A DNA stretch of 36,836 nucleotides from a virus. Its lineage: Duplodnaviria; Heunggongvirae; Uroviricota; Caudoviricetes. The translations under genes were made by a program, and so were the position numbers. Position 1 is the first letter of the stretch. Each line of letters opens with the position of its first letter. Below, in pieces: positions 2,448 to 36,836 of this stretch. The notes beneath the pieces are model-generated. The model did not search any database. It saw only the letters and a list, made by a program, of their open reading frames with translations, and was not told the DNA's origin. Where the stretch lies: IMG/VR virus record IMGVR_UViG_2585428015_000012; one strand, 5' to 3'.

Positions 2448-3535
2448 AAATTACCTGCGTAATGAGAAAAACTTGTACCATCCTGCCGTGAAAGCAGATC
2501 GCGCCCTGTATCCACTTTTCGCCCGTCGTCCCATCCACGGATAAACTCACCGCGTAAATCGGGAAGACGGAGGGTCGGGTAGACTCTGGCCAGAACAGGA
2601 TATTGTTCTTTTGTAAAGGCGCGCCCGTCGCACTTTAACCAGCCTGCTGGCGGTGTGGCAGTGGGCCACGGAACAGGTACACCAACGGGCAGCGCCGAGC
2701 CTTCCCCCAAACCAAGGTAATTGAGGACATCTTTTATACTGCCCTTAGCGATAATAGCGCGACCAATAGCTGTAAGGGTTGCCAGCTCTGCGCGGTCTGC
2801 TCCGGTAAAATAAGGCAACCGATCTGCTGCAGTGGCAAGTCCTGCCAGAGCAGTGAGCGTGGCATCTGCCGGTTGTTTTCCGTTTGCCAGATCGTATGCA
2901 GCCTTGACCGCTTTCGGTGTGGCGGCCAGTATTTCAGACGTGCTGTTGATGGCACTGCTCAATTGTACGGTGCCTTTTGCCGTCAGCGAGGCAGCAGGCA
3001 CTCCCGTTATCTGACTCCACGGGTGAGTGTGGCTGACGGGCGCCTTGCCGGCTGCAAGGTCGTATGCAGCCTTGACCGCCTTCGGCGTGGCAGCCTCAGT
3101 TTCTGATTGACTGTCCGTGGCGCTGCTCAGTTGTACGGTGCCTTTTGCCGTCAGTGAAGCCGCAGGCACTCCCGTTATCTGACTCCACGGGTGAGTGTGG
3201 CTGGCAGGCGCCTTGCCGGCTGCCAGGTCGTATGCAGCCTTGACCGCTTTTGGTGTGGCGGCCAGCGTTTCAGAGGTGCTGTTGGTGGCACTGCTCAGTT
3301 GGGTGAACCCCTTAGCTGTCAGTGTCGCGTCCGGGTGGTTACGGGAACGTACGTGTTCAGCCAGTGACTGTGCGGCTTCCTCCGTTTTCTTCTTCAGCCA
3401 TTTCGTCCTGTTTGCCAGTTGCCGGGGGGCTCGATTTGATATCCCGTCTGCACCACCCAGAACCGGATCTGATGTCTCCAGTTGATAGATATTTTCTTCC
3501 CACTTTTCTGTTTCATTCAGGTTTCCCATAATCAA
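2444..3535 (-). CDS. Phage tail fibre protein, 3'-truncated by the IS66 insertion (stop codon lies inside the IS terminal repeat)
   Basis: 363 aa ORF with three tandem ~56 aa repeats (TAKG.VQLSSAT.S.SET.AATPKAVKAAYDLA) and a C-terminal segment matching the phage tail-collar pattern (GWLKCDG...LPDLRGEFIRGW) that breaks off where the IS begins. Confidence 0.75.
   Translation of the reverse strand: MIMGNLNETEKWEENIYQLETSDPVLGGADGISNRAPRQLANRTKWLKKKTEEAAQSLAEHVRSRNHPDATLTAKGFTQLSSATNSTSETLAATPKAVKAAYDLAAGKAPASHTHPWSQITGVPAASLTAKGTVQLSSATDSQSETEAATPKAVKAAYDLAAGKAPVSHTHPWSQITGVPAASLTAKGTVQLSSAINSTSEILAATPKAVKAAYDLANGKQPADATLTALAGLATAADRLPYFTGADRAELATLTAIGRAIIAKGSIKDVLNYLGLGEGSALPVGVPVPWPTATPPAGWLKCDGRAFTKEQYPVLARVYPTLRLPDLRGEFIRGWDDGRKVDTGRDLLSRQDGTSFSHYAGNL
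2860..3340. repeat. Three tandem ~168 bp in-frame repeats inside the tail fibre gene
   Basis: Motif cgtatgcagccttgaccgc recurs at 2893, 3061 and 3229 (168 bp spacing); flanking sequence also repeats. Confidence 0.8.
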
Positions 3536-4110
3536 CTGCTCCCGTGGTTATAACTGCCATCATGGATGGCGGTATTGTTATAGCGAATGGCCACAGACTG
3601 ATACTCCAGGCTGGCCAGATGGCAGCGGGCCGGTGCAAATGCAGCCAGCGTCTGACGCAGCATCGCGGCCTGATCGTTAGTAATGGGCTGTTTCAGAATA
3701 ACGCGATAAACTGCCCAGGCGGCTGCATCTCCATGAACAAACAGTCCGTTATAGCTGCGATTGCCGTCGTAACTGAGACGACCTGTGCCTTCAATCAGAT
3801 CCACTTCACCAAAGCCAAAACGGCGGATAACTTCCCGGATTGACCACGGCGTCCCTTTATACCGGTGCAGTTCGATGGCTGCTTTTATAAGCATGCGGCG
3901 AACATCGTCCGATTCCGCCAGCTCCCAGCCATCGCCAGACAGTGAGAACTGCTCGCCCAGCCATGGCAGCGCGGAACTGTCGACGATATCGACGAGAAAG
4001 ACCATCAGTACGCTCAGGTCGATGTTATCCAGCCGTCCTGCCAGTCTTCCCAGCGTCCTGAGACTGATATCACCCTCAAGCGGTGGCGGGAGTTGTAATG
4101 GCTCAGTCAT
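3532..4110 (-). CDS. Phage tail protein (Mu gp48 / P2 gpI-like)
   Basis: 192 aa ORF between baseplate J-like gene and tail fibre, overlapping both; position and size match the Mu/P2 tail protein I. Confidence 0.65.
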   Translation of the reverse strand: MTEPLQLPPPLEGDISLRTLGRLAGRLDNIDLSVLMVFLVDIVDSSALPWLGEQFSLSGDGWELAESDDVRRMLIKAAIELHRYKGTPWSIREVIRRFGFGEVDLIEGTGRLSYDGNRSYNGLFVHGDAAAWAVYRVILKQPITNDQAAMLRQTLAAFAPARCHLASLEYQSVAIRYNNTAIHDGSYNHGSS

Positions 4111-5206
4111 CAGACACTCCAGTCATGTTAAGAGTGATTGCCGTACAGTTTGCCCATTCGTTTTCTGCCACCACCCGCAGTGCCGGTGTCACCAGTTCAA
4201 CCTGGTACACCCCGGAAACGGACAATGCACTGATAATCTGGCTGGGGACAATATCGCGCCCCAGCGTGGCGGCACGTGATGCCACCCAGTTCTGTATGGC
4301 GCTGTTAGCGGCATCTTTTACAGACCTGGCATCCTGATCACGATAGATCGTAATCCTGGCTTCAATGGTGTAATCCACCTTCACTGGTGTTTTAGCCCGC
4401 ACTGTATCAGTGAGTGGCCTGACTTTCTCATCAGAGCAGAAACTCTCTACCAGCGTGAGAACACCGCCGTCCGGCAGACCGGTACTGAGCAGCGGATACA
4501 GATCTACGGTCCCGGGAACCGGGGAAAGCACAGCAACATCGACAATGTTGGGATGGGCCTGCATGGCATGAAAGCGGTATGCGCCACGGCTTCCGGCATT
4601 GGTGAATGACTCCGGGGCCAGCCTGATACGCTCCCGGAGCCTGTCATCGTCTTCCTGTTCTGAACCGCCGGAACTGGCCATCAGATTGCTCACCAGCAGG
4701 TTAACGTTATCAATCTCATCGAGTAACTGACTGACCTGCGCAGGTTGCCAGCCGTTACCAGCGGTACCGGGTTCGGTACAGGTGGCCGTGACATTGACCA
4801 GCAGCAATCCGGCCTTCAGTACCACATCTGTATCGGTGGCAAAAATAACGCTGTCGGAAGCGCTGACGCGGGTGCCTGCCGGGATCAGCACATCAATGGC
4901 CAGTGCCTCATCTACGGAGAACTGGAGCGTGGTGGTGGCAGGCTGCGCGGCAAGACGGTATACACCGACCAGTTCACCGAGGTAATCAATCATCGGCTCA
5001 CGGGCAAAGGCGACCAGATTCTGCTTTGCTGCCTCCTGTACCGCAACCCTGACCAGCATTTCGCGATAGGCCCACAGATCAATCAGCAGACGTTCTGCCT
5101 GTGCCGGGTACAGCGTTTTGCCGGTATCCGCTTCATACTTCGCAATCATTTCTGCCGTGATTTTGTCGGCATCGCGTTCAATAAAATCGGGTTCTGTCAG
5201 CGCCAT
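4103..5206 (-). CDS. Baseplate J-like protein (Mu gp47-like)
   Basis: 367 aa ORF in the conserved baseplate position; overlapping neighbours. Confidence 0.75.
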   Translation of the reverse strand: MALTEPDFIERDADKITAEMIAKYEADTGKTLYPAQAERLLIDLWAYREMLVRVAVQEAAKQNLVAFAREPMIDYLGELVGVYRLAAQPATTTLQFSVDEALAIDVLIPAGTRVSASDSVIFATDTDVVLKAGLLLVNVTATCTEPGTAGNGWQPAQVSQLLDEIDNVNLLVSNLMASSGGSEQEDDDRLRERIRLAPESFTNAGSRGAYRFHAMQAHPNIVDVAVLSPVPGTVDLYPLLSTGLPDGGVLTLVESFCSDEKVRPLTDTVRAKTPVKVDYTIEARITIYRDQDARSVKDAANSAIQNWVASRAATLGRDIVPSQIISALSVSGVYQVELVTPALRVVAENEWANCTAITLNMTGVSDD

Positions 5207-26798: not shown

Positions 26799-26903
26799 CA
26801 TCGCCCCACAGGAATGCGCTGTGAGCCGACCAAGGTTCAGTCAGTCTCGCGAGACCTGACCAGACTGCCATATTTTTTAATAATTGTAAAAGGCTTGCAG
26901 ATT

Positions 26904-27668
26904 ATGAAAATGCAGACATTACCCATCGTGCCGTGGATTGGTGGCAAACGCCGCCTTGCAAAACACATTCTGCCGCTGTTTCCGGCGCATGAATGTTATG
27001 TGGAGCCGTTTTGTGGGGCAGCAGCGCTCTATTTTCTTAAGACACCCGGCAAGATCGAAGTCATCAATGATATCAACGGTGAACTGGTGAATCTGTACCG
27101 GGTGGTAAAGCATCACCTGGAAGAATTTGTCCGCCAGTTCAAATGGGCGCTGGTCAGCCGTCAGATCTACAAATGGCTGCAGATCACCCCGGAAGAAACA
27201 CTGACGGATATCCAGCGTGCGGCACGGTTCTACTACCTTCAGAAGCAGGCGTTTGGCGGCAAGGTGGCAGAGCACAGCTTCGGTACCTCCACCACATCCC
27301 CGCCACGCTTCAACCTGCTACGTATTGAAGAAGAACTGTCAGCGGCACACCTGCGGCTTTCCAGAACAGTCATAGAACACATGGACTGGCAACAGTGCAT
27401 TGAGCGTTATGATCGTCCGCACACGCTGTTCTACTGCGACCCACCGTACCTGGGTACGGAAGGCTATGGTGTGGATTTTCCTGAAGGGAACTACTCGCGG
27501 CTGGCAGAGCTGGCCCGGTGCATCAGAGGAAAAATGATAATTTCGGTGAACGACATCCCGCAGATGCGCGAGGTGTTCACTGGACTGAACATACAGACAG
27601 TGAATATCAACTACAGTCTGGCGGGTAAACCCACGCCGCGCCGTGAACTGCTAATCTGCAACTTCTGA
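26904..27668 (+). CDS. DNA adenine methyltransferase (Dam family, N6-adenine)
   Basis: 254 aa; N-terminal AdoMet-binding region (IVPWIGGKRRL, EPFCGAAAL) and catalytic DPPY motif (FYCDPPYLGTEGY). Confidence 0.85.
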   Translation: MKMQTLPIVPWIGGKRRLAKHILPLFPAHECYVEPFCGAAALYFLKTPGKIEVINDINGELVNLYRVVKHHLEEFVRQFKWALVSRQIYKWLQITPEETLTDIQRAARFYYLQKQAFGGKVAEHSFGTSTTSPPRFNLLRIEEELSAAHLRLSRTVIEHMDWQQCIERYDRPHTLFYCDPPYLGTEGYGVDFPEGNYSRLAELARCIRGKMIISVNDIPQMREVFTGLNIQTVNINYSLAGKPTPRRELLICNF

Positions 27669-27784: not shown

Positions 27785-28141
27785 TCAGCCTGCGATTTTT
27801 CCTGGTTTTGGCTGAGTATAGAATCGCCCAATCTCAAGAAATGAGCGTTGTTGGTCTGGTGTCATGTCGTCAAAAGTATCTATTAGTTTTTGTTTTTCTG
27901 GGGAAATTTGATTCTGGTTTCTAGTCATACCATCTGTGCTCATTCCAGTGAGCAACCAATTTACATCAACATTAAACTCTTGATGCATCTTTAACAGAAA
28001 CTCCCCTCCAGGCATCGCCTTTCCATTTTCAATCTGACTGATACCACCATTAGAAATACCTAAACGAGCTGCAAATTCTCTCTGGTTCAACCCTGCTTTC
28101 TTCCTCACAGAAATAACGCGCTCTCCTATATCTTTGCTCAT
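27785..28141 (-). CDS. XRE-family HTH repressor (phage immunity repressor, c-like)
   Basis: 118 aa; HTH motif LNQREFAARLGISNGGISQIENG; transcribed divergently from the early operon across an operator-like palindrome; AT-rich. Confidence 0.75.
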   Translation of the reverse strand: MSKDIGERVISVRKKAGLNQREFAARLGISNGGISQIENGKAMPGGEFLLKMHQEFNVDVNWLLTGMSTDGMTRNQNQISPEKQKLIDTFDDMTPDQQRSFLEIGRFYTQPKPGKIAG

Positions 28142-30047: not shown

Positions 30048-31817
30048 ATGACCCCGGCACTGACTGAAAAACTGGTTGAAACAGCCCGCGCGGCACGTGA
30101 CGCGGGGCATGGTAAACGCGGTGCAATATACGACGCTGCCTGTGCTGAACTTGGCATGTCCCGCGCCACTCTGCTGCGCAGGCTGAAGGAGGTATCTGTG
30201 ACTGATAAACGCAAAAAACGCGCCGATGCCGGGCGCAGCGCCCTGACCCGCGACGAAGCCGCGCTGATATCTGCCACACTGCGTGAGGCCACCCGCAAGA
30301 ACGGTAAGCGTCTCTATTCCATCGCAGATGCAGTGGAAACCCTGCGGGCTAACGGCTTTATCACCGCAGGCAGAACAGATGAAACCACCAGTGAGTTTTT
30401 CCCGTTGTCTGAAGATGCCATCAGCCGTGCTCTGCGTAACTATGGCCTGCACCCGGAACAACTGGATGCCCCTGCACCACATACCGAAGTGGCCAGTCTG
30501 CATCCCAATCATGTCTGGCAGATTGACGCCTCACTCTGCACGCTTTACTACCTGAGCAATGGACATAAAGGGCTGCAGGTGATGGACAGCGCGAAGTTCT
30601 ACAAGAACAAGCCCGCTAACCTTGCCCGTATCGCCAGTGACCGCGTGTGGAGTTACGAGATTACCGACCATGCCAGCGGCTGGATTTACGTTGAGTATGT
30701 GACGGGCGCGGAATCAGGTGAGAACCTGTGTTCTGTGCTTATCAACGCCATGCAGGAGCGTGGCGGCGCAGACGTGCTGCACGGCGTGCCGAAAATACTC
30801 TATCTCGACCCCGGCTCGGCAAACACCGCGGGTATGACGAAAAACATGTGCCGCTCACTGGGCATCGACCTGATAGCGCACAAGCCGCATAACGCCCGCG
30901 CCACCGGACAGGTGGAAAAGGCGCGTGACATTATCGAACGCAAGCTGGAGCCGGGTCTGAAGTTCCGGCCGGTTCACAGTCTGGAAGAACTCAACGCGCT
31001 GGCCGCGAAATGGCGCAGCCACTTTAACGCCACGGCTGTTCACAGCCGCCACGGTAAAACCCGCACGGATATCTGGCTGAAGATTACTGCTGAGCAGCTG
31101 AAAAAAGCGCCTTCCGTTGAGGTATGTCGTGAACTGGCTGTGGCGGCACCAGAACTCCGCAAAGTCACGCCAAAACTTCGTGTCTCGTTCCGGGGCACTG
31201 AATTTGACGTATCAACGGTACCGGGCGTACTGGTTGGTGAAAAACTGATGATTACCCGTAACCCATGGCGCAGCGATGTGGCACAGGTGGTTCTGACCGG
31301 TGAGGACGGCCACGAGACGTTCTTCCTGGTCGAAGAGGTCAGAAAGAACGAGTTTGGCTTTGCTGAAGGCGCGGCGGTATTTGGCGAAAGTTACAAAGCC
31401 CTGCCGGAAACCCCGGCACAGATGGCGGCAAAAGAAACCGAAGCGCTGGTTACCGGTACAGACAACGCCGCAGATGCAGCCGCCGCACGCAAGGCGAAGG
31501 CGCTGCCGTTCGGCGGGCGGCTTGACCCGTATAAACATATCGACGACACCACACTTCCGGCCTATATGCCGAAGCGTGGTCAGGCCTCTGACGTACGCGG
31601 GCCGCGCACTGAACAACGTCCCATGACTCATGTGGAGGCCGCGAAAGCCCTGCGCGATAAGTTCAGCGCCGACGGCCTTACCTGGACGCCGGAACATTAC
31701 CGCCAGTTAACGGCACAGTACCCGGACGGCGTACCGGAAGCCGCACTGGATGAAGTCATGGCCACGCTGACCACACCGGCCCGCAGCAGTGTTATCAGCA
31801 TTGTTAACGGCAACTGA
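30048..31817 (+). CDS. Phage DDE transposase (Mu A functional analogue; integrase-core fold with N-terminal HTH)
   Basis: 589 aa; N-terminal HTH (MSRATLLRRLKEV); central core with conserved acidic residues (WQIDAS..., LYLDPGSANT..., QVEKARDIIE); followed by an AAA+ ATPase gene as in transposable phages. Confidence 0.85.
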   Translation: MTPALTEKLVETARAARDAGHGKRGAIYDAACAELGMSRATLLRRLKEVSVTDKRKKRADAGRSALTRDEAALISATLREATRKNGKRLYSIADAVETLRANGFITAGRTDETTSEFFPLSEDAISRALRNYGLHPEQLDAPAPHTEVASLHPNHVWQIDASLCTLYYLSNGHKGLQVMDSAKFYKNKPANLARIASDRVWSYEITDHASGWIYVEYVTGAESGENLCSVLINAMQERGGADVLHGVPKILYLDPGSANTAGMTKNMCRSLGIDLIAHKPHNARATGQVEKARDIIERKLEPGLKFRPVHSLEELNALAAKWRSHFNATAVHSRHGKTRTDIWLKITAEQLKKAPSVEVCRELAVAAPELRKVTPKLRVSFRGTEFDVSTVPGVLVGEKLMITRNPWRSDVAQVVLTGEDGHETFFLVEEVRKNEFGFAEGAAVFGESYKALPETPAQMAAKETEALVTGTDNAADAAAARKAKALPFGGRLDPYKHIDDTTLPAYMPKRGQASDVRGPRTEQRPMTHVEAAKALRDKFSADGLTWTPEHYRQLTAQYPDGVPEAALDEVMATLTTPARSSVISIVNGN

Positions 31818-31827
31818 GGAGGGAAAC

Positions 31828-32994
31828 ATGCTGGTACTGAAGCAGCAACTGAAAGAGGCCCGTATTCCACAGGCGGTGGTGGCGAGAGCTGTCGATGTTT
31901 CTGAGGCCACGCTGGCCCAGATTGTGAATCATAACGCGTGGCCCCGCACCAGCCCCGGAGAAGTGCGCCGGCGTCTTGCGTCCTGGCTGGAAAGTCAGGG
32001 GATTGATACAACGAAGAGTTTTGATGCTGTACAGGGCGCGGCCACGCCCCGTACAGCGGGTACCACAGATAAAACGAGCCTCAGTGAGGAAGAGAATATG
32101 TTACTCAAAAAACAGGTGTTATTTCCAGCAACCAAAAAAGCGTTTGGTCTTTTCCGTGACCCGTTCGCCGACGAAGCCATGCAGGGTTCTGATGATGTGT
32201 TCACCACCCCGGACATTCGCTACGTGCGTGAGGCGCTGTACCAGACAGCCCGTCATGGTGGGTTTATGGCCGTCATCGGTGAGTCCGGTGCGGGTAAATC
32301 CACGCTGCGCCGCGACCTGACTGAACGTATCAACCGCGAGAATGCGCCGGTAATTGTTATCGAGCCATACATCATCGCTATGGAAGACAACGATGTGAAA
32401 GGGAAAACCCTGAAGGCAGCAGCTATTGCCGAAGCCATTATCAGTACCATCGCACCACTGGAAAGCATCAGACGCAGTCAGGACGCCCGTTTTCGCCAGT
32501 TGCATCGCGTCCTGAAAGACAGCAGCCAGGCGGGGTTCAGCCACGTTCTGGTGATTGAGGAGGCCCACAGTCTGCCCATTCCGACACTGAAACACCTCAA
32601 ACGCTTTTTTGAGCTGGAGTCCGGTTTCAAAAAACTGCTGTCCATCGTGCTGATTGGCCAGCCGGAACTGGCGACAAAACTGTCTGAACGCAATATGGAA
32701 GTCCGTGAAGTCGTTCAGCGCTGTGAGGTGGTCGAACTTCTGCCTCTGGACAATAACCTTGAAGAATTTCTGACGTTCAAACTGCAACGGGCCGGTAAAC
32801 AGCTGACGGACATTATGGACGCCGGTGCAGTGGATGCCATACGTGCCCGCCTGAGCAATCCGGGAAGTCACCGTAAAAATATGGTCAGCCTGCTGTATCC
32901 GCTGGCCGTCAGTAACCTGGTAATAGCCGCCATGAATCTGGCCGCTGAAATCGGGGTTCCACAGGTCAACGCTGACGTTGTCAAAGGGGTTTAA
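31828..32994 (+). CDS. Transposition AAA+ ATPase (Mu B functional analogue)
   Basis: Start at ATG 31828 with GAGGAGGG upstream; Walker A GESGAGKST, Walker B-like VLVIEEAH; N-terminal HTH-like segment. Confidence 0.8.
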   Translation: MLVLKQQLKEARIPQAVVARAVDVSEATLAQIVNHNAWPRTSPGEVRRRLASWLESQGIDTTKSFDAVQGAATPRTAGTTDKTSLSEEENMLLKKQVLFPATKKAFGLFRDPFADEAMQGSDDVFTTPDIRYVREALYQTARHGGFMAVIGESGAGKSTLRRDLTERINRENAPVIVIEPYIIAMEDNDVKGKTLKAAAIAEAIISTIAPLESIRRSQDARFRQLHRVLKDSSQAGFSHVLVIEEAHSLPIPTLKHLKRFFELESGFKKLLSIVLIGQPELATKLSERNMEVREVVQRCEVVELLPLDNNLEEFLTFKLQRAGKQLTDIMDAGAVDAIRARLSNPGSHRKNMVSLLYPLAVSNLVIAAMNLAAEIGVPQVNADVVKGV

Positions 32995-32996
32995 TA

Positions 32997-33266
32997 ATGA
33001 AATCCACCACAGGTATCAACCAGCAAATCAGCAAAGTGCAGTCAGCCATTATGGCGCTTAAGGCGACGAACACGGATGTACAAAGCATCACCATCAGGGG
33101 TAACAAACCTGTCATCCGCGTTTCCCGGAGTGCGCATTGCATGCGCATGCTTGAGCAGGGAAAGGCCTGTTATCTGTATACCGGACATGACCACAGGGGA
33201 TATTTCCGTCAGGGCGTTTTCGAACTGCACGGCTGTCGCGTCGTGTGGCCGGAATCTTTGTGGTAA
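32997..33266 (+). CDS. Hypothetical small early protein (89 aa)
   Basis: Coupled to the B-like gene stop (TAATAATG). Confidence 0.45.
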   Translation: MKSTTGINQQISKVQSAIMALKATNTDVQSITIRGNKPVIRVSRSAHCMRMLEQGKACYLYTGHDHRGYFRQGVFELHGCRVVWPESLW

Positions 33267-33293
33267 TCAGCACAACTGGAGAAATCATAAAAA

Positions 33294-33824
33294 ATGGCAA
33301 AAAGTACAAAAGGTGCAAAACGTATCAAGGCCGCAGCAGCACTCTGGGTGCCGGGGACACGTGAAGAGGTCATTGAGGGAATCAGACTACTCGGTGACGC
33401 ACAACGTGAACTGGTCAGGGCTGAAACAGAAATGAATGACGCCATTGGCGATATCACCGCACGTTATGCCCCGCTCACCGAGAGCCTGAAAAAACGCATG
33501 GCCGAACTGCAGTCCGGTATTCAGACATGGTGTGAGGCACACCGTGATGAACTGACCGGCAACGGGAAGGTGAAGTTCGCTAACCTCACCACCGGCGAGG
33601 TGCAGTGGCGAAACCGTCCGCCATCAGTCAGTATCCGTGGGGCGGATAATGTTATTGAATTACTGAGACGTCTGGGGCTTGAGCGCTTTATTCGTGTAAA
33701 AGAGGAAATAAATAAAGACGCTATCCTGAATGAAAAAGAGGCCGTGAAAAATATTCCCGGTATTTCCATTAAAAGCGACATTGAGGATTTTTCAATAATT
33801 CCTTTTGAGCAGGATGTGCAGTAA
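33294..33824 (+). CDS. gam: Gam-like host-nuclease inhibitor (Mu Gam family)
   Basis: 176 aa; near-colinear resemblance to Mu Gam (MAK..KRIK.AAA, ETEMNDAI, WCEA.RDELT..GKVK.ANL.TG.V.WR.RPPSVSIRG, GISIKSDIEDFSIIPFEQ). Confidence 0.85.
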   Translation: MAKSTKGAKRIKAAAALWVPGTREEVIEGIRLLGDAQRELVRAETEMNDAIGDITARYAPLTESLKKRMAELQSGIQTWCEAHRDELTGNGKVKFANLTTGEVQWRNRPPSVSIRGADNVIELLRRLGLERFIRVKEEINKDAILNEKEAVKNIPGISIKSDIEDFSIIPFEQDVQ

Positions 33825-33921
33825 ACACACCACGTTAATTATTTAATAAAAACATTTTCTTTTTTATTCCGACGTCAGCGCCGCGGGCTTCTGCACGCCG
33901 GAAACAGAGGAGAATTAAATC

Positions 33922-34116
33922 ATGATATTTAAATGTATTCAGTGCGAGAGGGATATAACAGCCCTGCGTTTTCACAGCGCCATCGCCGTGATGTCCGGTA
34001 AATACCACATCCCTGCGGTACGCGTCACCCTGGTCTGCCCGTACTGCAGCCAGCATTTTTCGGCAGACGTGCCCGTCATGGAATTCTCCCGCCCTGACAG
34101 GGAGGACTCGCAATGA
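33922..34116 (+). CDS. Small zinc-ribbon protein (CxxC...CxxC)
   Basis: 64 aa; GAGGAG ribosome-binding site; Cys pairs at 5/8 and 39/42. Confidence 0.45.
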   Translation: MIFKCIQCERDITALRFHSAIAVMSGKYHIPAVRVTLVCPYCSQHFSADVPVMEFSRPDREDSQ

Positions 34117-34385
34117 TTACCCCACAGGAAGCACGACAGCGCACCCGAACCCTTGTTGAACACTATGTCAACGAGTGTGAATGCCGCGACCTCACCGATG
34201 TGAAGCACGTCCTGACGGCGCTAATCAGCATGGCCACACAGGCCATTGTGGCGACCAACGGAAAGGAGGCTGCCCTGCAGGTACTGATGAACACACTCAC
34301 CCACACGGCAGAGCATGAGGTGCCGTACCGGATGGAAACCACTGCAGAAGGCGGCCTGCACATCACCGTCAGCCGGAAGCACTGA
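34113..34385 (+). CDS. Hypothetical small early protein (90 aa)
   Basis: GGAGG ribosome-binding site; ATGA coupling. Confidence 0.45.
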   Translation: MITPQEARQRTRTLVEHYVNECECRDLTDVKHVLTALISMATQAIVATNGKEAALQVLMNTLTHTAEHEVPYRMETTAEGGLHITVSRKH

Positions 34386-34394
34386 GGGCGCGGC

Positions 34395-34691
34395 ATGACA
34401 CGAAACACCGAACTCACCCGCACCGCCCTCTACCGTCTGGCCCTGCAGCGTTTCGGGCCGGACGCACAGGCCCTGAAACTGGCAGAAGAGGCCGCTGAAC
34501 TGGCGGCCAGTGCCGCCCGCAACCTGAACGGACAGGGCAGCGAAAGTGACCTCGCGGCAGAGCTGGCAGACGTGGAAATCATGACAGAGCAACTGCGCCT
34601 TCAGGGGATGGACCGGCTGATTGACTTCCACAAACAGAAAAAACTGGAACGTCTGGCTGCACGACTGGGCGTGATTTACACGAACGAGTAA
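34395..34691 (+). CDS. MazG-like nucleotide pyrophosphohydrolase domain protein (tentative)
   Basis: 98 aa all-alpha protein with paired acidic motifs (EEAAELAA...AAELADVEIM...L) resembling small MazG/HisE-type NTP-PPases. Confidence 0.45.
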   Translation: MTRNTELTRTALYRLALQRFGPDAQALKLAEEAAELAASAARNLNGQGSESDLAAELADVEIMTEQLRLQGMDRLIDFHKQKKLERLAARLGVIYTNE

Positions 34692-34705
34692 CCGGGAGGC
34701 ATTCA

Positions 34706-34921
34706 ATGGCTGACATACTCAGGGAAATCACCGCATGGACACTGATTCTTACTGGCCTGGCGACATGCCTCAGTGCGGGGGCAGCCCTGGCTGCCCTGCT
34801 GATGCACATAACAACACAGTGGTTATGGGAAAAGCTTAAAGCAGCATACAGCCTGAAAGAGCTGTCCGACGCTGTCCGGGCATGGAAACGGCAGAAAAAT
34901 ACCGGAGATACAGAACAATGA
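34706..34921 (+). CDS. Small membrane protein (71 aa)
   Basis: GGGAGG ribosome-binding site; hydrophobic segment WTLILTGLATCLSAGAALAALLM. Confidence 0.45.
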   Translation: MADILREITAWTLILTGLATCLSAGAALAALLMHITTQWLWEKLKAAYSLKELSDAVRAWKRQKNTGDTEQ

Positions 34922-35601
34922 CAGACCAGAATAAACACATTGAGAAACTGAAAAAGTTGCTGGCGCTGGCCGCATCCGGCAACCCGCACGAGGCCGCTCT
35001 GGCACTGCGCCGAGCCCGTAAACTGATGGATGTTCACGGCATCACACATTCCGACATTGCTATGAGTGATATTGATGAAACCATCAGTCACTACTGGCCG
35101 ACAGGCAGTCTCCGTCCACCGCGCTACATGCTGGGCCTGATGAACATCATCCGCGAGGTATTTGGTGTTAACTCCATCATTCACCCCGGCACGCATCCGT
35201 CTGTGGGGTTCTACGGCAACCGGGAACGTGCGGCACTGGCTGCATACACCTGGGAAGTGCTGGCCCGTCAGCTGAAAAAGGCGCGTCAGCAGTATATCAG
35301 TGCACAGAACAAAAGAATAAAAACCGCCACCCGCACCAGCCGTGGAGACCAGTTTGCCGAAGGCTGGGTGCTGGCCGTTATCAGTGAAATACAGTCCTTT
35401 GCCCTGACCGATGATGAGCGTGAACTGATGCAGCAGTGGCTGGAACATAAATACCCGCAGACGCAAACCACCAGGGCGCGTAAACCGGGAAGAAGCCGCA
35501 ATGGCGACGCCTCGCGCTATGCGGGGTTTCGTGAAGGGCAGAACGTCAGACTGCACCGCCCGGTCAGTGGGCAGGAACAACAGAAACTGGAGGCCAGATG
35601 A
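34918..35601 (+). CDS. Hypothetical early protein (DUF2786-like by recollection)
   Basis: Start at ATG 34918 (ATGA overlap with preceding gene, GGAG upstream); 227 aa. Confidence 0.45.
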   Translation: MTDQNKHIEKLKKLLALAASGNPHEAALALRRARKLMDVHGITHSDIAMSDIDETISHYWPTGSLRPPRYMLGLMNIIREVFGVNSIIHPGTHPSVGFYGNRERAALAAYTWEVLARQLKKARQQYISAQNKRIKTATRTSRGDQFAEGWVLAVISEIQSFALTDDERELMQQWLEHKYPQTQTTRARKPGRSRNGDASRYAGFREGQNVRLHRPVSGQEQQKLEAR

Positions 35602-35828
35602 TTACGCTATCAGGTAAAAGCCGGAAATTAAAAGCCTGCCGAATATCTGCCAGATACCTTTTTGCCCGCGCCTTTTTTAAGAACGTCAGGCCGGGGATCA
35701 CAATTGGTGTTATTGCCGGACGCGAACAGGTTGAAAAATACATGTCAGGTGCATGGTGGAATAACGACCCTGTCATTGCTGCCCGTAATATTCATATCGA
35801 ATGGGGAGGTATTCAGAATGACTACTGA
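35598..35828 (+). CDS. Hypothetical small protein (76 aa)
   Basis: ATGA-coupled ORF in the early operon. Confidence 0.4.
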   Translation: MITLSGKSRKLKACRISARYLFARAFFKNVRPGITIGVIAGREQVEKYMSGAWWNNDPVIAARNIHIEWGGIQNDY

Positions 35829-36024
35829 AACCATTGTCTGTTTTCTTTTCTGGTATATGTACGCAGGATCATGCAGCGCAAGACTTCATCGTTCCCTGGG
35901 CTATGGCAGGCACTACGACACCGCGCATTACATCCTGTACATGACCGCCGTCATGTTGTTCTGGCCAGTCACCCTGCCAGCTGCAACCGACATTGTTGCC
36001 GACAGACTGAAAAAAAGGAGATGA
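35818..36024 (+). CDS. Small membrane protein (68 aa)
   Basis: Start at ATG 35818 with GGGGAGG 8 nt upstream; hydrophobic segments. Confidence 0.4.
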   Translation: MTTETIVCFLFWYMYAGSCSARLHRSLGYGRHYDTAHYILYMTAVMLFWPVTLPAATDIVADRLKKRR

Positions 36025-36025
36025 T

Positions 36026-36475
36026 ATGCAGAAAAAACGCCTGATACAGCTTATCCATATTGCCCGTAATGAACTGGGTATGGATGAAGACACCTACCGC
36101 CAGATGTTACAGGGGCTGACCGGTAAAGCCTCAACCAAAGGAATGGATACCACACAACTAAACTGCGTGCTGGAATCCATGAAAAAGAAAGGCTTTCGCG
36201 TTAAACCAGCCAGAAAAGCCAGCTCCGGTTTACCGCTTGATAACCATCCGCAGTCCAGGAAAATTCGTGCGCTATGGCTTGAAATGGCTGCTGCCGGCAT
36301 TGTTCGTGACCGTTCAGAAAATGCATTAGCGAGGTGGATCAAGCGGGAAACGGGCATCAGCGCCCTGCGCTGGCTCAGTACTGAACAGGCAAGCAGTGTT
36401 ATTGAGAAACTGAAGAAGTGGCAGCGCAGAGCTGCGGGAGTCAAACATGAGCGACCTGAATCAGTTTCGAAGTAA
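36026..36475 (+). CDS. GemA-like regulatory protein (Mu gp16 family)
   Basis: 149 aa; N-terminus KRLIQLIHIARNELGMDEDTYRQML..LTGK.S resembles Mu GemA-type proteins; immediately upstream of mor as in Mu. Confidence 0.6.
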   Translation: MQKKRLIQLIHIARNELGMDEDTYRQMLQGLTGKASTKGMDTTQLNCVLESMKKKGFRVKPARKASSGLPLDNHPQSRKIRALWLEMAAAGIVRDRSENALARWIKRETGISALRWLSTEQASSVIEKLKKWQRRAAGVKHERPESVSK

Positions 36476-36836
36476 GGGGCCGGAACTCCTGGTGGAACTG
36501 GCACAGCATACCTCTGAGACCGTTCGCGAGATTATTGATATTGAGCCCGAAGTTGCCGACCAGATTGGTCAGGCCGTCGCGAACCGAATGATGCAGGTCT
36601 GGGGCGGGCAAAACGTTTATTTCCCGATGGGCATGGTATGGAAGGTCAGTCAGCGCGACCGGGAAATCTTCAGGGAGTTTAACGGACGCAACCACCACGA
36701 ACTGGCCCGCAAATTTGGTGTTTCGCTTCAGTGGGTCTACAGCGTGGTTAAGCGGGTAAGAAAAGAAGAACTGGATCGGATGCAGGGCAAGCTATTTGCT
36801 GATGAACCCGATGCAGATACGGAGAAAAAAGAGTAA
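36447..36836 (+). CDS. mor: Mor-like transcriptional activator (Mu Mor/C family)
   Basis: 129 aa; C-terminal HTH (NHHELARKFGVSLQWVYSVVKRVR); last gene of the early operon in the window. Confidence 0.75.
   Translation: MSDLNQFRSKGPELLVELAQHTSETVREIIDIEPEVADQIGQAVANRMMQVWGGQNVYFPMGMVWKVSQRDREIFREFNGRNHHELARKFGVSLQWVYSVVKRVRKEELDRMQGKLFADEPDADTEKKE

Follow-up and report, generated by a model that had tools for sequence, protein, structure and literature searches.

A predicted MazG-superfamily NTP pyrophosphohydrolase encoded in a Mu-like phage early operon

The early operon and its 98-residue reading frame

We analyzed a window of 36,836 nucleotides, the whole stretch of viral DNA held in IMG/VR record IMGVR_UViG_2585428015_000012, which includes a Mu-type early operon (Table 1). 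Positions 33200-36836 of the window match Escherichia phage PhiKM (PQ738613.1), a Mu/BcepMu-like transposable phage of the genus Bcepmuvirus, with 100% identity, and so do positions 2583-4500. Besides the genes for the transposase, the MuB-like ATPase, Gam, GemA and Mor, the operon holds several small ORFs, among them the gene for the 98-aa protein that is the subject of this work. The first-pass annotation of the window had assigned this gene to the semi-essential early region, a term that would apply by analogy with phage Mu, and the gene map bears out the position: the gene follows the transposase and the MuB-like ATPase and lies between Gam on one side and GemA and Mor (36026-36836) on the other. 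Across 39 Mu-like viral contigs, at identities as low as 53%, the gene remains flanked by the MuB-like gene and DUF2786-GemA-Mor, and several of the small neighboring genes are present in some loci and absent from others. The gene for the DUF2786/DUF7168 protein, two genes downstream, accompanies the MazG-like gene in most Mu-like loci. Its start lies at 34882 in the longest ORF, which overlaps the upstream gene, versus 34918 in GenBank/RefSeq. Searches by tblastn of the Mu-like loci L022-L039, which carry the clade at ∼70-75% identity, did not find a Gam homologue or a copy of the 71-aa membrane ORF.

Table 1. Features of the early operon, of the MazG-like gene and of related loci. Positions are those of the window, except for the BcepMu gene.
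Feature	Coordinates	Strand	Basis or remarks
D12-class Dam methylase	26814-27668		Pfam-type assignment
HTH repressor	27785-28141	-	
Mu-type early operon	30048..36836	+	Pfam matches, gene order in loci L002-L040, PhiKM annotation
rve transposase	30048-31817	+	
MuB-like AAA ATPase	31789-32994	+	
Gam	33294-33824	+	
Shine-Dalgarno-like GAGGG	34384..34388	+	6 nt before the ATG; overlaps the stop codon of the upstream ORF; read from the sequence
Predicted MazG-like (all-alpha) NTP pyrophosphohydrolase gene	34395..34691	+	single-domain, 98 aa
First acidic motif EExxE (codons E31-E32-A-A-E35)	34485..34499	+	predicted Mg2+ ligands, helix 2; aligns with TEEMGEL of Bacillus MazG 5ie9
Second acidic motif ExxD (codons E56-L-A-D59)	34560..34571	+	predicted Mg2+ ligands, helix 3; aligns with EEELGDV of 5ie9
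Q66 codon	34590..34592	+	83/83 members
K83-L-E-R86 codons	34641..34652	+	basic, C-terminal part of the long helix; K83 in 81/83 and R86 in 82/83 members
DUF2786/DUF7168 protein	34882-35601	+	PHROG 421; two genes downstream of the MazG-like gene
GemA	36026-36475	+	
Mor	36447-36836	+	
BcepMu gp06 'pyrophosphatase' (YP_024679.1)	L084 (NC_005882) 2668-3105	-	145 aa

As read from the sequence, the gene is a 98-aa ORF that begins with ATG, stop codon included in its coordinates, exactly as the first-pass annotation had described it. The two glutamate-rich motifs quoted in that annotation are also found, EEAAELAA at residues 31-38 (nt 34485-34508) and AAELADVEIM at residues 54-63 (nt 34554-34583). 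The flanking + strand ORFs are tightly packed around the gene (34113-34385 upstream and 34706-34921 downstream), and this close packing is operon-like, as expected. Two antisense ORFs are long (161 and 333 aa; 34221-34706 and 34579-35580, - strand) and overlap the early genes, so that the length of an ORF in this region is by itself no proof of coding. In searches with the + strand proteins, the family matches around 34395-34691 all fell on + strand proteins. That the + strand frame is coding follows from its match to PHROG 2245 (below), from a family of homologues that includes 46 close relatives in Enterobacterales, from dN/dS values of 0.10-0.24 calculated against homologues at 68-97% nucleotide identity, and from the fact that the same CDS was called by GenBank record PQ738613 and by RefSeq. 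We conclude that the gene is genuine and subject to purifying selection, and that base composition most likely gave rise to the two antisense frames as by-products.

Several observations concern the relation of the window to PhiKM. Three ORFs on the + strand within positions 1-2417 (1-426, 423-773 and 804-2417; 141, 116 and 537 aa) match the 'transposase' PHROGs 1013, 623 and 688, in a three-ORF layout that we take to be that of an IS66-family insertion sequence; the first base of the window is the first letter of the ATG of the first of these ORFs. In PhiKM, only ∼500 bp lie between the stop codon of Mor and the point where identity resumes (position 2583 of the window). Given this short interval, the element at 1-2417 seems, by comparison with PhiKM, to have been inserted or to replace other sequence. 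Some labels in the PhiKM record (PQ738613.1, 6833-7177 and 1629-2795) appear doubtful: a short ORF located between Mor and the tail-fiber gene is called 'Fe2+ ABC transporter permease protein 2', the MuB-like AAA ATPase 'Eha protein', and the Mor-family protein 'positive regulator of late transcription protein C'.

Family profile, conserved residues and predicted fold

The 98-aa protein matched PHROG 2245, 'nucleoside triphosphate pyrophosphohydrolase', over residues 1-97 (E = 5.5e-34, 118.9 bits), which makes it a full-length member, and two other NTP-PPase/MazG-like PHROGs matched it more weakly. In recently annotated genomes, the identical gene (RefSeq WP_001295929.1) is named 'nucleoside triphosphate pyrophosphohydrolase family protein', and it is 'hypothetical' in older annotations and in the PhiKM record. 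The prediction of an NTP pyrophosphohydrolase is thus already in public databases (RefSeq, PHROG 2245) and, in part, in published work on the genus. Using a profile built from close homologues, a full HMMER scan of 1.84 billion cluster representatives recovered 10,445 of them at E <= 1e-3, of which 1,916 passed E <= 1e-10; family members are mostly 90-110 aa long. Conservation was scored on an alignment of 83 diverse members, which, except for three close homologues, are 31-54% identical to the window protein.

The assignment of this family within Pfam was less direct. The window protein itself gave no match to Pfam MazG, and its scores against Pfam PRA-PH (15.5 bits versus a gathering score of 21.3; E = 0.023) and against the HisE equivalog TIGR03188 (14.6 bits versus a cut-off of 42.7; E = 0.029) place it outside both models. 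When the 83 members were scanned individually, 44 matched Pfam MazG, 18 matched PRA-PH and 8 matched MazG-like at E <= 0.1; at E <= 1e-3, Pfam MazG was matched by 7/83, with a best value of 2.2e-5. The family consensus aligned to positions 7-69 of the 74-position MazG profile (63 positions) with E = 0.0047 and 17.6 bits versus a gathering score of 22. The window protein falls short of the gathering thresholds of Pfam MazG (PF03819), PRA-PH (PF01503) and MazG-like (PF12643), which makes it a relative at the level of the superfamily and not a formal member of these Pfam families. A second large family-profile search, meant as a bridge to Pfam-labelled MazG proteins, gave only unlabelled family members among the best 120 relatives listed, none of which carried precomputed Pfam domains. 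Judged by these profile comparisons, the family is a branch of the superfamily that lies outside Pfam coverage.

Comparison with proteins of solved structure gave a similar picture. Against PDB sequences, neither phmmer with the protein nor hmmsearch with a narrow 22-sequence profile returned anything meaningful. The broader family profile matched Bacillus MazG 5ie9 at E = 0.007 and the integron-type iMazG 2q73 at E = 0.053, as well as 2q5z (iMazG), 2gta (YpjD) and 1vmg (SsMazG), and in both displayed alignments, those of 5ie9 and 2q73, the EExxE and ExxD motifs are aligned. An hhalign comparison of the family profile with E. coli MazG was not significant, a weak test given that the template was a single sequence. 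The sequence link to MazG is consistent but weak.

The acidic residues of the two motifs are conserved throughout the alignment. E31, D59 and Q66 are invariant in 83/83 members, E32 is present in 81/83, and E35 and E56 are each present in 82/83; more broadly, G21, Q25, E32, E35, E56, A58, K83, R86 and L87 are kept in 81-82 of the 83. The four predicted acidic ligands that the superfamily calls for (E-x-x-E/D followed by E-x-x-D) are present as E32, E35, E56 and D59, together with E31, at 97-100% conservation among the 83 relatives, and 20 residues separate E32-x-x-E35 from E56-x-x-D59. The signature EEXX(E/D) is the Mg2+-binding motif of MazG enzymes, and the reported metal ligands are E119/E122/E138/D141 in Mycobacterium tuberculosis MazG and E46/E49/E74/D77 in the Campylobacter jejuni dUTPase (PMC10014863). 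The acidic pattern of the 98-aa protein matches this predicted metal-binding signature, and its spacing fits that of the reported ligands. Q66 possibly contacts the substrate or a water molecule. By analogy with the basic residues of the dimeric dUTPase (PMC10014863), K83 and R86 are candidate phosphate binders.

We then consider the predicted fold. An AlphaFold2 monomer model computed from the 83-sequence alignment reached a pLDDT of 95 and a pTM of 0.80, with all five models above 94, and consists of helices at residues 9-44 and 50-91, in keeping with the earlier description of the protein as all-alpha. A first model, built from a shallow alignment, had returned only weak PDB matches in Foldseek. 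In a viral structure library, the top matches were phage proteins named NTP pyrophosphohydrolase (TM 0.74-0.82). The all-alpha model superposes on solved members of the superfamily, and in this model the fold resembles those of solved MazG and HisE structures. Matches outside the superfamily reached comparable Z values (encapsulated ferritin-like proteins, designed helical proteins and ribosomal protein uL29) but at much lower identity, 10-13% for ferritin-like proteins versus 18-26% for MazG/HisE. Structure prediction and profile searches had been proposed in the first-pass annotation as a check, and an unrelated fold devoid of the glutamate arrangement was not what they returned. Moroz et al. 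are said to have united MazG, HisE and dimeric dUTPase in 2005 as one superfamily, the all-alpha NTP pyrophosphohydrolases. Tandem two-domain relatives exist in the family (P0052 and P0058), and these are compatible with a dimeric catalytic unit.

The gene segment is present in 621 of 5,426 complete E. coli genomes (∼11%), always on the chromosome and by way of Mu-like prophages. Distant members of the family (34-49% identity) occur in unrelated phages, usually where the replication/DNA-metabolism region ends, and their neighbors there encode N6/N4 and C5 methylases, DUF1064 proteins, RusA, SSB, a VapE-type primase, ThyX, HNH endonucleases and the small terminase. Among 137 neighboring proteins at 24 such distant loci, no recurrent partner gene was found. 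Varied DNA-metabolism neighbors with no recurrent partner make the pattern of a stand-alone accessory gene of nucleotide metabolism, like that of phage dUTPase.

Length variants were seen in several branches. In a clade at ∼70-75% identity, some gene calls (P0012, P0029, P0031 and P0036; 166-169 aa) add a C-terminal extension of ∼70 aa (LPRRELLEDWCGAVPNSAFIGA). Many distant members are 150-180 aa long and carry one of two recurrent N-terminal extensions, which the longest-ORF rule may explain: type 1 is a ∼60-aa domain with the pattern 'GLFY...GIDN.TGDAWVEEF..EEC..WL', and type 2 is Cys-rich ('EIVTALRCC...') (extended members: P0220, P0239, P0241, P0262, P0263 and P0266; P0227, P0252, P0271 and P0297). 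At locus L044, there is an in-frame XRE-type HTH segment upstream, and here too the longest-ORF rule may be the explanation.

Comparison with known MazG-type proteins

The single-domain MazG proteins of Bacillus (YpjD/BcMazG; 2gta and 5ie9) and of integrons (iMazG; 2q5z and 2q73) are related to the family only marginally at the sequence level (E = 0.007-0.15 with the family profile). They differ from the window protein in having a longer loop between the two motifs and in lying within Pfam MazG, whereas the window protein falls under that threshold. The MazG of Sulfolobus solfataricus (SSO3215; 1vmg) is an archaeal cellular protein whose match to the profile reached only E = 0.33, and we know of no established substrate of its own. 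The modeled fold also resembles that of HisE, the phosphoribosyl-ATP pyrophosphatase (PF01503; 1yvw, 6j22 and 7bgm), but the window protein scores under the curated cut-offs for it, no his genes were found among the early-operon neighbors of 34395-34691, and PR-ATP hydrolysis would serve no evident purpose in a phage early operon. E. coli MazG (3cra/3crc) is a 263-aa protein with tandem domains encoded downstream of mazEF and relA, whereas the protein described here is a single domain of 98 aa from a phage operon; neither the tandem arrangement of ∼260 aa nor the mazEF-relA neighborhood was seen.

In BcepMu, the type phage of the genus Bcepmuvirus, gp06 shares the same slot, in the early operon between the MuB-like gene and GemA/Mor, and its motifs SEVAEAME and EVELAD are comparable to those of the window protein. 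It belongs to a different and very distant subfamily: tblastn gave no match, and hhalign of the family profile with gp06 as a single sequence or with a 60-sequence alignment of the gp06 family was not significant, although single or low-diversity templates make this a weak test. Lynch et al. (2012) used HHpred to assign AH2 gp25 to MazG and counted gp06 as one of the proteins resembling it (PMC3483164). The presence of distinct MazG-like subfamilies in the same slot in BcepMu and in the phage studied here suggests that the activity may have been selected repeatedly in the early operons of transposable phages. The MazG of cyanophage S-PM2 is also a phage-encoded, MazG-type protein, but this cyanophage is lytic and T4-like, and the protein is of the canonical Pfam MazG type. 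In our literature searches, it was the only phage MazG that had been tested biochemically, and searches covering MazG in Mu-like phages, MazG in relation to dITP and defense, and MazG-like anti-defense proteins of phages turned up no experimental study of the present family.

Possible roles during infection

On the basis of the PHROG 2245 match, the acidic residues, the alignment with 5ie9 and the RefSeq name, the gene very probably encodes a small MazG-type NTP-cleaving enzyme of the superfamily that comprises MazG, HisE and dimeric dUTPase. The first-pass annotation had tentatively proposed a small MazG/HisE-type NTP pyrophosphohydrolase; that proposal stands at the level of the superfamily but does not hold for Pfam MazG proper. 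As for the role of the protein, we favor, with some confidence but well short of certainty, a single-domain all-alpha NTP pyrophosphohydrolase acting to clean or rebalance the (d)NTP pool during transposition. In such a scheme, the protein would be made from the early operon alongside the transposase, the MuB-like ATPase and Gam, and the helical chains would assemble as a homodimer or homotetramer. One or more Mg2+ ions would be held by E32, E35, E56 and D59 with the aid of E31, and K83 and R86 would bind the triphosphate, so that the alpha-beta phosphoanhydride bond of a (d)NTP could be cleaved to (d)NMP and PPi. The consequence would be a (d)NTP pool cleaned or rebalanced while replicative transposition proceeds, a form of 'house-cleaning' like that of small MazG proteins and phage dUTPases.

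A different role was implied by the earlier suggestion that the gene forms an anti-defense toolkit with Gam and the Dam methylase. Gam and a D12-class Dam methylase are both present, but no functional link among the three genes was found, and our results neither support nor refute the idea of a toolkit. A counter-defense enzyme of this kind would hydrolyze a triphosphate-bearing immune nucleotide or the non-canonical (d)NTPs made by a defense system; candidates are the dITP of Kongming, the (d)ITP of which RADAR-type deaminases are a source, and p3diT-type signals. Cyclic oligonucleotide signals carry no triphosphate, and would thus offer such an enzyme nothing to cleave. Compatible chemistry is known, as the substrates of house-cleaning NTP pyrophosphatases include dITP and further non-canonical NTPs (PMC10014863), dITP has been documented as an immune signal (10.1101/2024.12.20.629578), and p3diT, which bears a triphosphate, served as a test ligand in another defense study (PMC12265719); in addition, the gene is an accessory early gene of a temperate phage and sits beside Gam. 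However, the known inhibitor of Kongming is a dAMP phosphatase and not a pyrophosphatase (10.1101/2024.12.20.629578), our literature searches found no anti-defense role for a phage MazG-like enzyme, and the family is very large and resides mostly in DNA-metabolism regions, without the patchy variable-locus pattern typical of anti-defense genes. The PADLOC-DB models gave no match for the 98-aa protein or for 7 neighboring proteins. We consider a counter-defense enzyme unlikely, and its more specific form, a dedicated counter-defense factor of transposable phages that destroys triphosphate-type signals or dITP/ITP-like (d)NTPs, slightly less likely again. If true, this large phage family outside Pfam coverage would represent widespread anti-defense enzymes that degrade signals or toxins.

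Three further possibilities fit the data less well than pool cleaning. MazZ of Z-genome phages and the T4 dCTPase gp56 remove a canonical dNTP in base-modification pathways, and the window protein could be a helper of the same sort, clearing one canonical dNTP to let a modified base enter the DNA in its place, the more so as superfamily members of other phages do this and the phage has a Dam-type methylase. Dam, however, methylates DNA that has already been synthesized, which calls for no altered nucleotide pool; the early region showed no PurZ, dCMP hydroxymethylase, thymidylate synthase or other nucleotide-modifying partner, and the neighbors of distant family members are heterogeneous, all of which makes a base-modification helper improbable. 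The protein could also modulate the stringent response, lowering (p)ppGpp directly or indirectly and so keeping a starved host permissive, an old hypothesis for cyanophage and E. coli MazG that Lynch et al. (2012) repeated for BcepMu gp06 and its relatives (PMC3483164). This appears very doubtful given that S-PM2 MazG hydrolyzes dGTP and dCTP preferentially and neither binds nor hydrolyzes (p)ppGpp (PMC6850273), and that a single 98-aa domain with no mazEF/relA link stands against the 263-aa tandem protein of E. coli. Finally, the helical hairpin may not be an enzyme at all but a ferritin-like/encapsulated-ferritin-like metal binder, a regulator or a nucleotide 'sponge' that has lost catalysis. 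Spurious structural matches are common for short helical folds, and the best sequence-profile match in the PDB was to the N-terminal region of a STAS-domain protein (3zta, E = 7e-4). We rejected a relation to 3zta because the EExxE motif is unmatched in that alignment. The low identity of the ferritin-like matches relative to MazG/HisE, and the near-invariance of the full acidic set with K83 and R86 throughout this very large family, as is typical of an active enzyme, leave little room for a non-enzymatic protein.

With pool cleaning by a small MazG-type enzyme as the preferred reading, the main value of these results is the correction of an annotation, in that the gene listed as 'hypothetical' in PhiKM can be renamed a predicted MazG-superfamily NTP pyrophosphohydrolase. 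The gene is common in E. coli, and the family to which it belongs is very large among phages.
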